Below are positions 54,435-59,158 of a DNA stretch of 64,000 bases, in pieces. Origin of the DNA: a virus; the IMG/VR virus record IMGVR_UViG_3300023184_007611, positions 37,046 to 101,045 of that record, one strand, 5' to 3'. The position numbers and the translations under genes were made by a program. Position 1 is the stretch's first letter. Every line of letters starts with the position of its first letter. The notes beneath the pieces were generated by a model. It saw only the letters and a list, made by a program, of their open reading frames with translations. It made no database searches and was not told where the DNA came from.

Positions 54435-54595
54435 TTATTCGTTATTACACAGCATCAGAGGCCTTTATTTGATGTTTTCTTATAAGCAATAGGAAAAGAC
54501 ATTAATTATTAATAAATGTTATTAAAACGCATTTTAGGAGGTTTTTTAAAAATAAATAATATAAACATAATAAATAATATAAAAGGAATAATAAA

Positions 54596-55870
54596 ATGGC
54601 TAAAAAAAATTTATGGTACTGGGGAATCAATCATCATGTTAGAAGTACTCCTCCAGATCCTCGTAATGATTTTCTTCCGCATTTGGTAGGTGCAGGACTT
54701 AATTGGAGTTGGAAGCATATTACAGTTAATAGGGAAGGAGCACATGGTATAACTGAAAATGGTGATTTATACGGATGGGGAAATGATTGTGATTATGCTG
54801 AGGTTGCCACAAAAGTACCACCTTATTACAAAAGAGTTTGGTATTGCGTTTCTTTAACTGGTAAAGGTAGAAAAGAATGCAGGCCAGGACAACCAGGCTA
54901 TGATCCAGAATCTGGATTTATTAAAAATGGTCGTATTGTAAGACCAGAAGAAAAATGGAAAGATGTATCAAGAGGCGTTAGACATGTTGCTGGAATTACT
55001 AGAAGTGGAAGATTATATAGCTGGGGTACAAATTTCAACGGAGAACTTGGAAGAGGTAGAGAAATCGAACAACCAGGTAGATTGAAACCAAATCAAGTTG
55101 TTTCTTATAAAGGCATAAGGTTTTATCCTGTTGAAATAATGATTGGTGGAAATGATTGGATTCAGGTAAAATGTGGCTTTAAGTTTTCAATAGCATTAAA
55201 AGAAGATGGCTCAGTATGGTATTGGCCTACTAATGGTGGAAGAGGTTGCTCAGATTGTTTTAAATTCCCTAAACCACTTTGCAAAGGACAATTTTGTGGT
55301 CCTAAAAAAATAGCTACTGATTTCAAAAAAATCGCTTGTACATTTGACAGTGGCCAAGTTTATGGTCTTAAAAAAGATACTACAATTTGTAAATTTATTA
55401 GGTCATTTGGGAGTGAAGCAGAAGCTTCAGTTTTAACTCAATTAGGAGATGGATGGAAAGATGTTACATGCAATTTTAATGATGGAGGCGGTGGAATAAA
55501 AGAAGATGGAACTTTATGGACATGGGGACCAAATTATAGTGGCGAGCTTGGGATTAATAAAAGCAAAAATGAAGTTGTATATTCTTCTTCTCCAGTACAA
55601 ACAACTTTAGGTGGTAATGATTGGAAGTCAATTACTACTGGCAATAATTCTAATACAAAATATGCTATAAAAAATAATGGTAGTTTATGGTGTTGGGGAG
55701 GTAATTCCACAAACATAGGAATTGGTGGTCTTAATTTTGAAGTTCGTGAACCTATACAAAATATTAAAGATAGCGTAGGATGGAAAATGGTATCTACAGA
55801 TGTATTAGGAACATTAGCTATAAGAGATGTAAAATTTGAACCTACAACAACAGTACCACCTAATAATTAA
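54596..55870 (+). CDS. RCC1-repeat beta-propeller protein
   Basis: [30 protein letters not shown] repeats. Confidence 0.8.
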
Positions 55871-55875
55871 TACAC

Positions 55876-56014
55876 GCATATCAGCAAGGTACATATCAGC
55901 AAGGTGCATATCAGCAAGGTACATATCAGCAAGGTGCATATCAGCAAGGTGCATATCAGCAAGGTGCATATCAGCAAGGTGCATATCAGCAAGGTACATA
56001 TCCTTGCTGATATG
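55876..56014. repeat. Non-coding 15-bp tandem array (8 copies of RCATATCAGCAAGGT) capped by one inverted copy
   Basis: Copies span 55876-55995; CCTTGCTGATATG at 56002-56014 is the reverse complement of the core. Confidence 0.95.
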
Positions 56015-56364
56015 GTTATATTAACTTATAGCAAGTAAAATACAACGAGATAACATAATAGTTGTTTGAACAACTGTTGTTTATAACGAGATAGTAAAAT
56101 GAGTAATTTAAGTAGTTTGAGTTATTTTTTTTAATTTATAAAAGTAATGGCTAAAGCTACAAACTAAAGAAGGTATTAATAAATTTAAGATTATAGTTCA
56201 GCCATTAATTATTATAAATGGTTTTAGTTTATATTATCAGTAAGATTTATTTTTATTTTCAAAGTATTTTTTGAAAAAAGGGTGGAATGGGAGAAGAGTG
56301 TTTGGTAGAACAAGGTAGAAGATGATGTGTACCTCTTCGCCCAGATTTAAAATGGAGGTAAGAT

Positions 56365-57012
56365 ATGAATAAGTGCTTACTAGGAAGTGTAATATTTGGA
56401 TGGTTTGCTGGTATAAAGGAAGTTCGAAGTATTAGAAAGAGTAAAAATGGTGTAAGTCCTATATCGGCACAGATAAAGTTAGAGGCAGGAAATACGATAG
56501 GCAACAAGTCAAGGGTGGAGTCTACGGATGTTAAATACAGTAAACTTATTAATGTTGAAACTAGTATAGAAGATTTAAAAATAATATTAAGTGGCATAAG
56601 AAGAGTTAACAAGTATTACAAACATGAATTCATGGACAAAAATACAGTATCTGATCAAATGATCAGTATTTTAGATAATTATTACAAAAGTAATAATACC
56701 ATGGATATAAATTACGCAAAGTCGATGTCATGTTTTGGAGTAGAGATAGCTCCTAGGTTATATTTGAAAGATGTAATAAATATAGATGCCATAGATAATA
56801 ATGATATTAATAATATAAGTTCTGATTTTTTAATAATTAAATTAATAGAGGATAAATTTTTAAAGAAGTTAATGTCTGGCAGTTATATTATGAAGGGTCA
56901 TGATTACAAGATGAAGATATTAAGTGATAATACGGTATTGATAGCGATACCAATAACACAAATAAAAGAAGTTTTTAAAAATATTAATAATTTCTTAAAA
57001 AATAAAATATAA
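56365..57012 (+). CDS. Hypothetical protein between two repeat clusters
   Basis: GGAGG SD; 215-aa ORF. Confidence 0.6.
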   Translation: MNKCLLGSVIFGWFAGIKEVRSIRKSKNGVSPISAQIKLEAGNTIGNKSRVESTDVKYSKLINVETSIEDLKIILSGIRRVNKYYKHEFMDKNTVSDQMISILDNYYKSNNTMDINYAKSMSCFGVEIAPRLYLKDVINIDAIDNNDINNISSDFLIIKLIEDKFLKKLMSGSYIMKGHDYKMKILSDNTVLIAIPITQIKEVFKNINNFLKNKI

Positions 57013-57190: not shown

Positions 57191-57337
57191 GCGTCACGAG
57201 CTACAGGGACAACGGTATAAGTTTATATAGTGTCCTAATTTTCCTGAACGCCTGCACGGTTGACGAATAAGCTTATAAGTTTATATAGTATCCTGATTTT
57301 CCTGAATTCCTGCGTCACGAGCTACTTGCGTCACGAG
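57191..57337. repeat. Interleaved direct repeats: GCGTCACGAG x3 and TATAAGTTTATATAGT-TCCT-ATTTTCCTGAA x2
   Basis: GCGTCACGAG at 57191, 57312, 57328; long unit at 57216 and 57274. Confidence 0.85.
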
Positions 57338-57378
57338 TTCAGTTCAGGATAAGCTTATAAGTTTATTTAAATGATTTA

Positions 57379-57432
57379 ACTGGAGTTACTGGAGTTACTG
57401 GAGTTACTGGAGTTACTGGAGTTACTGGAGTT
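57379..57432. repeat. Perfect 9-bp tandem repeat (ACTGGAGTT)x6
   Basis: Directly visible. Confidence 0.95.
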
Positions 57433-57452
57433 ATAAGTTTATGTAATTAAAT

Positions 57453-57486
57453 AAAAAAGCCCCGTTAGTTTATAATCTAACGGGGT
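57453..57486 (-). terminator. Intrinsic terminator ending the minus-strand tRNA/ncRNA unit
   Basis: Minus strand: CCCCGTTAG-ATTATAAA-CTAACGGGG-CTTTTTT. Confidence 0.85.
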
Positions 57487-57491
57487 TTGGG

Positions 57492-57705
57492 GATTCTTTT
57501 TAGATAATGCTCGGTTTTTGATCCTAAAACCGATTTGATTGGCATTGTGGTGGTGGAAAGGAGCTTAAGTACCAAAGAAACTTAAATTTACCCACATCAC
57601 ACATTATCTCATGCTTTTATGATCTCTGTGCCAGAGACTTGAGCAGTTAATTAACTCAAGCGATATTAACATTACACTCTTTGGTTTCAAGCAAGATAAA
57701 GAACC
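57492..57705 (-). ncRNA. Candidate structured non-coding RNA (~215 nt, multi-stem, pseudoknotted), family unknown
   Basis: Eight hand-folded stems plus a 9-bp loop pairing ACCAAAGAG/TTCTTTGGT; lies between a promoter and a terminator; no ORF. Confidence 0.65.
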
Positions 57706-57723
57706 ATTAACTTAACTAATATC

Positions 57724-57751
57724 ATCTTAATGATTGTTTTAAATTAGTCAA
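57724..57751 (-). promoter_or_regulatory. sigma70-like promoter upstream of the candidate ncRNA
   Basis: Minus strand TTGACT-N16-TAAGAT. Confidence 0.55.
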
Positions 57752-57821
57752 TATAATTATTGTTTATTTAAATGGGGATAGTGGGAGTTGAACCCACATG
57801 ATGTTGCCATCGAGGGATTTT

Positions 57822-58583
57822 CAACAAGATGAATGTTTTCACATTCTGGTTACTTGTTTGGACTATATCATCACCTTCAACATTACTTGGTTAGGTGTCG
57901 TGAGCATAAGTCTCTGAACCTTCCTCATTTTAAAGAGGCTCGGCTGCTGATTGCCCAATTTCCCATAGTTTTATAACTTTCGCACCCGTTGTTTCCAACC
58001 ATGCTGTAGTCATGGGAACTATAAGGGTATTCCAGCAATTTCCACGATTCTCATTCATAGATTTCTCTATGATGGCTCGTTGCAAATCAAGATATTTATG
58101 TAGTCTACCATGTGTTCTTCTGTCCATCACCATAAGGTTTTTTACATCGTTATTCTTATAATTATTATCAACATGATGAATTACCATATTGTAAGATAAT
58201 TTTCCAAGAATACTTTTTGCAATTTCTCTGTGTTCACATTTCGCCCCAATCATTTTATATTGATTAGAACTCAATGTTTCTTTTGCAAGCTTTTTATTTA
58301 GTTTCCAACAATCAGAACAATGTTTTTGTTCTTTTCGCCAACCTAAATATTCTTTCTTGCAAACTTCACAGATTATTTTAATCCTTCTGGTAAATGGATC
58401 ATTTTGGTAACGATTCTTAGCACATTCCCTTTTGTGCTTAAGATAACATTCCCTACACATCTTTCGACCAACATCACGATCTTGATTGCATTTAATGCAC
58501 ATCTTTGGTTTTTTGCTCATGTTTTAAATTAGTAATCCTAATTAAAAAATTGGCATACTTATCAAATTAATACATTAAAAGTC
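57822..58583 (-). mobile_element. Group I self-splicing intron (tRNA-Leu/IC3-like) with homing endonuclease ORF
   Basis: Follows U34 and ends in G; IGS GAGCC 58078-74; P2 TCATAGA-GAAA-TCTATGA; P AATTGCTGGAA; Q AATCAGCAG; R GTTCAGAGACT; S GATATAGTCC; P3 TCGTG/CACGA. Confidence 0.93.
57930..58520 (-). CDS. Intron-encoded HNH homing endonuclease with N-terminal Cys zinc fingers
   Basis: CxxC pairs, EHR, IHHVDNNYKNNDVKNL...HGRLH. Confidence 0.88.
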   Translation of the reverse strand: MSKKPKMCIKCNQDRDVGRKMCRECYLKHKRECAKNRYQNDPFTRRIKIICEVCKKEYLGWRKEQKHCSDCWKLNKKLAKETLSSNQYKMIGAKCEHREIAKSILGKLSYNMVIHHVDNNYKNNDVKNLMVMDRRTHGRLHKYLDLQRAIIEKSMNENRGNCWNTLIVPMTTAWLETTGAKVIKLWEIGQSAAEPL

Positions 58584-58623
58584 AAGTCCCTTGCGTCTGC
58601 CAGTTCCGCCATATCCCCTTTGT

Positions 58624-59007
58624 TTAGTTCCACCAAGCAGTAGTTTTACTTTCTTGGTTAAAATCTTTTTTATGAAGTGTTTTTATTACTTTATCAAATT
58701 CTTCTCCCAATTCATGGATACGAGAGATTGAGATTAAAACATGAGTTCCCCCAATTGCAGTTTCTTGAATTTCTGTAAGTCTTTCAACAACTTCTTTGAA
58801 CAAGTCTTTAGTTGCAATAGCAAGGTTTCTTAATTCTTTTTTATTGGTGACTAGATCAATTGTAAAAGAATCTTGCAATACTGCAATTGCTCCAAGACTA
58901 ACCTTTATCTTATCTCCTTTTTTAATTTTCTTCAATTCATTTAATGAATCTTGAAGGAACATAGCCAAGGCATCGAACAGTTTTCTAGTTTTATCATCTA
59001 CTTTCAT
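58624..59007 (-). CDS. Hypothetical protein, probably co-transcribed with the tRNA
   Basis: AAGGAG SD; stop is 5 nt before the tRNA 5' end. Confidence 0.65.
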   Translation of the reverse strand: MKVDDKTRKLFDALAMFLQDSLNELKKIKKGDKIKVSLGAIAVLQDSFTIDLVTNKKELRNLAIATKDLFKEVVERLTEIQETAIGGTHVLISISRIHELGEEFDKVIKTLHKKDFNQESKTTAWWN

Positions 59008-59044
59008 ATTACCACTCCTTTTAAAAATAGGTTAACTAATAATG

Positions 59045-59076
59045 TATTCGGTTCATAATATTGGAAAATTCCAACT
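59045..59076 (-). promoter_or_regulatory. Bipartite motif AGTTGRAAT-N14-AACCGA, copy 1
   Basis: Minus strand AGTTGGAATTTTCCAATATTATGAACCGAATA. Confidence 0.65.
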
Positions 59077-59158
59077 TTTAATTAAAATATTTTGCTTTTT
59101 ATAAAAAACTTTATAATAATAACTTCAGGGTGTTTATCATTTTTTCAGGAGATGTATT

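Follow-up and report, generated by a model that had tools for sequence, protein, structure and literature searches.

Results

Organization of the tRNA-Leu(UAA) locus

The window, i.e., the whole stretch of DNA that was analyzed, comprises 64 kb and represents the right-hand part of a 101-kb IMG/VR virus record with an estimated completeness of ~30% and a G+C content of ~30%. At the locus studied here, a gene for a 127-aa protein is followed on the same strand by a split tRNA-Leu(UAA) gene, a leader, a non-coding RNA and an intrinsic terminator, beyond which two repeat arrays are located. The individual features are as follows:

59007-58624, minus strand: gene for a 127-aa protein of unassigned family, without Pfam or PHROG match
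58618-58584, minus strand: 5' exon of tRNA-Leu(UAA), read from the sequence, starting 5 nt past the stop codon of the 127-aa gene
58583-57822, minus strand: group I intron of 762 nt with an HNH endonuclease ORF (58520-57930); Rfam RF00028, 59.6 bits at 58095-57846; Pfam HNH_3, E=3e-7
57821-57773, minus strand: 3' exon of tRNA-Leu(UAA), with long variable arm, T arm and acceptor strand; CCA not encoded
57772-57706, minus strand: leader of 67 nt between the tRNA and the RNA core, near-invariant in relatives and inside RNA contigs X16 and X18
57705-57492, minus strand: ORF-poor non-coding RNA core of 214 nt, 93-98% identical to the relatives L006, L007 and L008, found in RNA contigs, without Rfam match
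57485-57450, minus strand: intrinsic terminator, stem CCCCGUUAG...CUAACGGGG and U-tract, kept in all relatives
57433-57379: perfect repeat array of 9 bp x6 (x6.1, unit ACTGGAGTT), beyond the RNA terminator
57167-57037: repeat array of 26 bp x5, beyond the RNA terminator

The RNA sequence was found exactly where the preliminary description had located it, on the minus strand. The terminator, which had been described as strong, has a 9-bp stem with 6 G-C pairs ahead of its U-tract.

The tRNA-Leu(UAA) is interrupted after U34 by the 762-nt group I intron that carries the HNH endonuclease ORF. Each of the three relatives contains, according to ARAGORN, an intron-less tRNA-Leu(taa) of 84 nt (L006:5385-5468, L007:2183-2266 and L008:5385-5468), and BLAST comparison with these genes placed the intron junction exactly at 58584|57821. 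Since the tRNA lacks the intron in three close relatives, we consider the latter a recent, presumably mobile insertion. It sits between the tRNA exons, upstream of the core, and is no part of the RNA.

With regard to the surroundings of the locus, the word ATAAACTTATA occurs four times at about 57445-57220 on the minus strand, three times as ATAAACTTATAA and once as ATAAACTTATAC, with two of the copies lying inside a longer repeat, GGA(T/C)ACTATATAAACTTATA. The four-copy word could be a phage-specific promoter or a site for protein binding. The nearest downstream ORFs (56259-56612 and 56365-57012) matched no Pfam or PHROG family. Further away, an RCC1-repeat gene (54596-55870, region 54545-55876) is absent from L007 and L008, in which homology skips from about 55880-55890 to 54544, so that, at the sequence level, this gene behaves as a gained-or-lost cassette.

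Conservation of the block and distribution of its homologs

The relatives compared were three metagenome contigs (L006, L007 and L008) from other lake metagenomes. All three keep the tRNA, leader, RNA and terminator together. Identity from tRNA to terminator is 93-96% for L006 and L007, and over the core it is 93-98% across the three. The DNA downstream of the terminator region is only 85-88% identical to the relatives. In L006 and L007, unrelated DNA begins directly past the terminator, and homology, at about 85%, returns near 57324/57289. The 9-bp array, along with the DNA around it, has given way to unrelated sequence in L006 (about 385 bp) and L007 (about 1070 bp), whereas L008 retains it. 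The terminator sequence itself is invariant among the relatives, including the two in which the DNA past it has been swapped. At the level of these sequences, the RNA is conserved as a single block that extends from the tRNA through the terminator.

The RNA diverges from the relatives by about 2-5%, whereas third codon positions of the 127-aa gene differ by 7-10%; with a neutral divergence this low, conservation of the RNA fits constraint but proves it weakly.

The 127-aa gene co-occurs with the tRNA and the RNA in three of three relatives. Its product has 38 relatives in public metagenome proteins, 37 of them full-length and 80-98% identical and one partial; an AlphaFold model of it consists of four helices, with a low-confidence pLDDT of 57.6. 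We regard this protein as a candidate partner of the RNA. Metagenome-protein relatives of the neighboring MoxR range from 94% to about 42% identity and include groups at 72-82% and 43-52%.

Searches for remoter homologs were negative. Neither blastn of the RNA with a distant-homolog setting nor tblastn of the 127-aa protein produced a match in 50,697 phage records, in which MoxR reached only 24-34% identity, and scans of IMG/VR with the 127-aa protein, the MoxR protein and a MoxR alignment returned no relatives. DNA patterns searched in IMG/VR gave four matches for the 17-mer of the loop hairpin, six for the strands of helix 1, 24 for those of helix 2 and none for the tRNA 3' end, and all of these matches were dismissed as chance by BLAST or by a covariance model of the RNA (R1). 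GTDB genome contigs searched with the MoxR alignment yielded only bacterial MoxR genes (26-31% identity). Apart from the known copy, model R1 matched nothing in the 101-kb record, the T4 locus or the sequences hit by chance in the pattern searches. A second phage tRNA, tRNA-Arg(tct), is encoded at L020:16425-16498, in the part of the record outside the 64-kb window, and model R1 found no similar RNA next to it. Homologs were thus found in one phage clade only, and the 101-kb record holds no paralogs.

Comparison with known RNA families and assessment of coding potential

Rfam 15, with 4227 models that include RNase P, tmRNA, SRP, 6S, Y RNA, T-box, GOLLD, ROOL, HEARO, riboswitches and ribozymes, was searched for known families. 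At gathering thresholds, the group I intron was the sole match in the 64-kb window and none fell on the RNA. When positions 57300-57900 were searched with E values up to 10, the best matches scored 12-23 bits against thresholds of 40-376 and lay on the terminator and the 3' hairpin; the Polynucleobacter-1 motif was absent among the matches listed. The preliminary description was accordingly right in that RNase P, tmRNA and SRP signatures are lacking, and the comparison with Rfam that it had suggested revealed no matching family. It had also inferred a possible new class of ncRNA: the position outside Rfam agrees with this, but "class" is too strong a word for homologs which all come from one narrow phage clade at at least 93% identity.

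Several specific identities were also considered. ARAGORN found no tRNA or tmRNA in the window, and the core has no T-loop motif. A tRNA-like 3' end (N-CCA after the terminal stem P1) was rejected as not conserved, given that CCA follows the terminal stem in the window and in L008 and is absent in L006 and L007. A CsrA sponge was discarded because the single loop GGA is GGU in relatives, and a retron msr-msd because no reverse transcriptase is adjacent and the terminator and repeat arrays lie downstream. A link of the Ro60/Y-RNA type likewise found no support, as no solved structure is related to the 698-aa VWA protein.

In line with the previous claim that the RNA contains no ORF, the longest one encodes 32 aa. 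The small ORFs of 26-32 aa lack Shine-Dalgarno sites and show few substitutions, which are non-synonymous; in the only ATG-started ORF, both substitutions are of this kind, and a 12-codon ORF in the leader acquires a stop codon in L006. With no coding signal in the substitutions and ORFs of at most 32 aa, a small-peptide reading was rejected.

Expression in lake metatranscriptomes

Twelve studies of freshwater or lake samples account for the 20 listed public runs in which the RNA stretch, or part of it, was detected. At least half of the sampled words were present in 14 DNA runs, and six further runs, on record as RNA, contained smaller parts. Expression was analyzed in four lake metatranscriptome runs from four studies, which were matched to positions 57300-59100 (1.8 kb) at a likeness of at least 85%. 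This evidence consists of assembled contigs, so RNA ends, strand and abundance are only roughly indicated, and uncovered parts of the 1.8 kb are uninformative with regard to absolute expression.

A 208-nt RNA contig of run X15 spans 57492-57695 at a depth of 7.8, and one of 212 nt in X17 spans 57492-57683, followed by 17 nt of Illumina read-1 adapter, at a depth of 15.4. The 292-nt contig of X18, which has an L007-like haplotype, covers 57493-57758 and extends 14 nt into the terminator and to the tRNA 3' end. In X16, a 166-nt contig joins 58610-58584 to 57821-57679 and continues into the 5' part of the RNA. The core is hence covered in three of the four metatranscriptomes and its 5' end is entered in the fourth; the transcript exists, and contigs link it to the tRNA. 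X16 carries the tRNA exons joined, with the intron absent, and its source may be an intron-less relative instead of splicing.

No RNA contig covered the 127-aa coding sequence in the four runs, even though this gene, being 92-93% identical among relatives, would have been detectable. This pattern makes uniform DNA contamination unlikely, with the RNA far better represented than the neighboring mRNA. Coverage of the 9-bp array (57379-57433) in RNA runs had loose ends unlike this sequence and was on that basis attributed to other organisms, and no phage RNA contig reached past the terminator in any of the four runs. The RNA transcript terminates at this strong intrinsic terminator.

As for the ends of the contigs, those at 57492 and 57695 lie next to polymorphic sites, where the assembly may have broken off. 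In X17, the read-1 adapter after 57683 would fit a minus-strand RNA if the library was stranded. The passage of this contig from 57683, inside ACCAAAGAG, directly into the adapter implies that many cDNA fragments stop there, which could mean that the RNA is processed at this point or that reverse transcriptase halts at the long-range helix described below.

The preliminary description had further assigned the RNA its own TTGACT promoter. The leader, which is predicted to fold as a hairpin (UUGACUAAU...AUUAGUUAA), does contain a promoter-like match, TTGACT-16-TAAGAT at 57751-57724, with a score of 9/12; nine such sites were found versus 10.2 expected in shuffles, which is the level of chance. 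Two RNA contigs cross this site and bridge from the tRNA into the RNA, which supports co-transcription with the tRNA and leaves a separate promoter unsupported.

Predicted structure of the RNA core

The core (214 nt) has a fold z-score of -2.53 on the minus strand versus -1.28 on the plus strand; the value of -4.77 obtained for 311 nt with the leader hairpin and the terminator owes much to these two elements. Perfect Watson-Crick stems of at least 8 bp number three in the core, whereas 2000 dinucleotide shuffles average 0.44 (P=0.01), and two of the perfect stems are long-range (shuffle mean 0.25, P=0.03). The excess of structure over chance is moderate. The parts of the core considered here are the following:

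57705-57698 with 57499-57492, minus strand: terminal stem P1, GGUUCUUU with AAAGAAUC, 8 pairs
57685-57677, minus strand: 5' strand of the main long-range helix, ACCAAAGAG; perfect 8-bp inverted repeat I12, invariant in all haplotypes
57579-57571, minus strand: 3' strand of the main long-range helix, UUCUUUGGU; loop of hairpin 57585-57565 in the preliminary model
57609-57601, minus strand: 5' strand of the second long-range helix, AGAUAAUGU; perfect 8-bp inverted repeat I10, invariant, crossing the main helix
57510-57502, minus strand: 3' strand of the second long-range helix, GCAUUAUCU
57661-57624, minus strand: local hairpins GCUUGAGU...GCUCAAGU (57661-57637) and CUCUG-GCA-CAGAG (57636-57624), pair probability about 1 in four sequences
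57533-57511, minus strand: 3' hairpin UCGGUUUU-AGGAUCA-AAAACCGA, perfect 8-bp stem I11, pair probability about 1
57564-57547, minus strand: single-stranded C/U-rich stretch GCUCCUUUCCACCACCAC, conserved, including CUCCUUU, which is complementary to the Shine-Dalgarno sequence AAAGGAG

All helices drawn by hand in the preliminary description could be located by script, with four corrections that are included in the following account. The closing stem corresponds to P1 and was found in place with its 8 pairs. Its changes are one-sided and compatible (G-C to G.U in L006 and L007; G.U to A-U in L008), and its nested pair probability is low in L006 and L007, where it is less robust. Arm A, UCUUGCUU/AAGCAUGA, is present with one U.U mismatch, but its outermost pair, U57696-A57609, is not conserved (U, G or C stands opposite A in the relatives), and the probability of the arm is about 0 in nested ensembles. 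Arm B, GAUAAUGU/GCAUUAUC, was confirmed as 57608-57601 with 57510-57503 and comprises 9 pairs, 57609-57601 with 57510-57502, in the modeled fold. The hairpins at 57661-57637, 57636-57624, 57585-57565 and 57533-57511 are all present, although U57637 had been assigned to two helices simultaneously, and of the GUG..GUGG/CCACCAC helix, which is also present, only 4 bp (GUGG/CCAC) hold in the relatives. In the two adjacent local hairpins, A57627>G in X17 retains a U.G pair and the changes at 57652 and 57631 fall in loops, as does the sole change in the 3' hairpin, at position 57522.

The complementarity on which the proposed pseudoknot was based is real: the 9-nt loop 57579-57571 can form 8 Watson-Crick pairs and one G.U with 57685-57677. 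The second cross-link, UGGCA/UGCCA, did not hold, being broken by G57631>C in one RNA contig. The main helix, which can be extended to GCUUGA at 57692-57687, appears in every predicted fold, with a nested pair probability of 0.37-0.94. On steric reasoning, a 9-nt hairpin loop should not be able to pair along its full length while its 6-bp stem stands, so that the version first drawn would accommodate about 6-7 pairs at most.

No direct repeats of at least 7 nt exist inside the core (57705-57492); the only 7-8-nt repeats at the locus pair the core with the tRNA and are not conserved. The C/U-rich stretch is predicted to be mostly unpaired in four sequences (probability mostly 0.5 to >0.9) and unpaired in three fold models; one CCA repeat unit of it is missing in L007 and X18.

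Support from compensatory change was sought in 67 pairs across four DNA sequences, a very similar set, in which 65 pairs never vary, two show one-sided compatible changes (both in the terminal stem) and none changes on both sides. One further haplotype was distinguished in the three RNA contigs; it contributes a loop change and a U-A to U.G change that is compatible with pairing. The covariation that would have substantiated the fold was therefore not obtained, as no helix has a double-sided change across five near-identical haplotypes. The three in-stem changes all keep pairing; loops, junctions and the single-stranded stretch with the CCA repeat account for the remaining substitutions and both indels.

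The minimum-free-energy fold of the window sequence alone was rejected because four of its pairs are broken by changes in L007 and X18. A fold similar to that of the preliminary description fits every variant (-46.8 kcal/mol nested, plus about -5 to -11 for the cross-helix), and so does the nested rod predicted by RNAalifold (-47.4 kcal/mol), in which the long-range helix grows to 15 pairs, GCUUGA-A-ACCAAAGAG with UUCUUUGGU-AC-UUAAGC. Three nested or pseudoknotted architectures lie within a few kcal/mol of each other and do not define the structure. The two long-range helices cross by their coordinates, which provides a real basis for a pseudoknot (P about 0.03), but the nested rod fits the variants equally, and on these models at least one other architecture does as well as the ornate pseudoknot. 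The elements that appear robust in the predictions are the terminal stem (less so in L006/L007), the ACCAAAGAG helix, the three local hairpins and the single-stranded GCUCCUUUCCACCACCAC.

Discussion

A proposed stable RNA released from a tRNA-Leu unit

Taken together, these results describe a credible, expressed and uncataloged phage ncRNA of narrow known distribution. The reading that we favor, with a probability of roughly 55%, is that of a stable structured ncRNA which forms the distal part of the tRNA-Leu unit, is released by tRNA 3' processing, ends at the terminator and acts in trans. The transcription unit would comprise the 127-aa gene, the tRNA-Leu(UAA) and, lastly, the RNA, in uncultured freshwater giant phages that are putatively T4-related. 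Host tRNA 3'-end processing would free the RNA from the tRNA precursor, and the weak internal promoter could perhaps also initiate it. The RNA would then accumulate by virtue of a compact fold, in which the terminal stem (8 bp) and the three robust local hairpins are combined with two long-range helices that never vary; as these helices cross, they would form a pseudoknot or else belong to two alternative conformations. Its partner in trans may be a protein, or the RNA may pair via its exposed C/U-rich stretch, the CUCCUUU of which could, as far as base complementarity goes, pair with ribosome-binding sites of the AAAGGAG type such as the one that precedes the 127-aa gene.

A bolder form of this proposal is possible but doubtful. 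Here, the RNA would be the founding member of a new family of tRNA-linked pseudoknotted RNAs in freshwater giant phages. Its two crossing helices would form a compact knot or a two-state switch that displays the anti-Shine-Dalgarno-like stretch, and through this stretch the RNA would influence translation or a host protein in trans in the course of infection, as a functional counterpart of the T4 species 1/2 RNAs.

Alternative explanations

The rival that survives best, which we nevertheless judge unlikely, holds that the RNA is an inert 3' trailer of the tRNA-Leu unit reaching up to the operon terminator. Its conservation would merely reflect recent divergence, and the RNA-seq signal would stem from stable, terminator-protected 3' fragments in libraries that capture tRNAs poorly. 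The small distance to the relatives (just 7-10% at third codon positions), the missing covariation, a chance-level promoter with RNA contigs that pass from the tRNA through the leader, and a core z-score of only -2.53 are all compatible with such a trailer. However, 320 nt would make a long trailer for a tRNA unit, stems either lack substitutions or keep pairing despite them, and perfect stems are in excess (P=0.01). Moreover, the block has remained intact while the DNA right past the terminator was swapped in L006 and L007, and the RNA contigs lie over the core and not over the terminator hairpin that would shield a decay fragment. These observations argue against the trailer.

It is improbable that the RNA is a cis-acting switch or pre-primer, in which two exclusive folds, with GCUU 57692-57689 pairing with AAGC at either 57616-57613 or 57566-57563, would set terminator read-through into the arrays at 57433-57037 and thereby prime or activate an origin. 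The T4 oriF/oriG R-loops and ColE1 RNA II are the models for such a mechanism. The RNA points to the 9-bp x6 and 26-bp x5 arrays, and the preliminary description had it transcribed towards a putative origin; the alternative pairings are near-equal in energy, and the RNA ends in a terminator, like riboswitch-type leaders. Nevertheless, this terminator is strong and invariant, no phage RNA contig continues beyond it, and the origin role of the repeats is itself putative. The RNA is present in L006 and L007, in which the 9-bp array and the adjoining sequence are missing or replaced, which indicates that the RNA is not tied to the downstream DNA.

Very improbable, finally, is a missed divergent member of a cataloged or published RNA family or a small-protein gene. 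In favor of this reading, covariance models may give low scores to AT-rich sequences, Rfam does not include a published collection of 8495 candidate structured RNAs of phages (PMC10690425), and ORFs of 26-32 aa are present. On the other hand, the best Rfam scores stay far under gathering thresholds and rest on the terminator or the 3' hairpin, ARAGORN recognizes no tRNA or tmRNA, and the published candidates, at 29-151 nt, are shorter than this RNA. The ORFs have no Shine-Dalgarno sites and only a few substitutions, which are non-synonymous, and a 12-codon ORF in the leader is stopped in L006.

The presence of the RNA in at least a dozen lake studies and the ease with which metatranscriptomes catch it make it a small, tractable case from an uncultured giant-phage lineage. 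If the knot or switch is true, it would represent a new RNA family and an entry point to the roles of tRNA-linked phage RNAs; if false, the lesson would be that AT-rich trailers are easily drawn as ornate folds.

Comparison with known phage RNAs

GOLLD (RF01998) and ROOL (RF03087) are structured, multi-branched non-coding RNAs with pseudoknots and in this respect are similar to the fold proposed for the lake-phage RNA. They are often carried by phages, beside tRNA genes, and are about 3-4 times longer than the lake-phage RNA; we know of no established biochemical function for either. Neither model matches the lake-phage RNA, and the folds of GOLLD and ROOL rest on extensive covariation, whereas the lake-phage RNA shows none in its near-identical set.

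By position and kind, the lake-phage RNA most closely resembles the species 1 and species 2 RNAs of T4. To our knowledge, stable phage RNAs beside tRNA genes have been known since these were described, and none has an assigned function. The resemblance does not extend to sequence, as the T4 locus (L022) gave no match to model R1 and no sequence or model similarity, and the tRNA-like T arm at the end of T4 rnaC, CCGGGUUCGAAUCCCGG, has no counterpart in the lake-phage RNA. T4 also encodes two RNAs, species 1 (rnaC, 139 nt) and species 2 (rnaD, 119 nt), while the lake phage has one of about 215 nt with a 67-nt leader and its own terminator. In T4, tRNA-Arg is followed after 1 nt by rnaD and after a further 6 nt by rnaC, so that both RNAs come directly after the last tRNA gene and on the same strand; the lake-phage RNA follows tRNA-Leu, likewise on the same strand, after 67 nt. 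The T4 RNAs, too, are small, stable and non-coding, without assigned function and not in Rfam, and their combined fold z-score of -4.07 is comparable to the -4.77 of the lake-phage RNA with its flanks.
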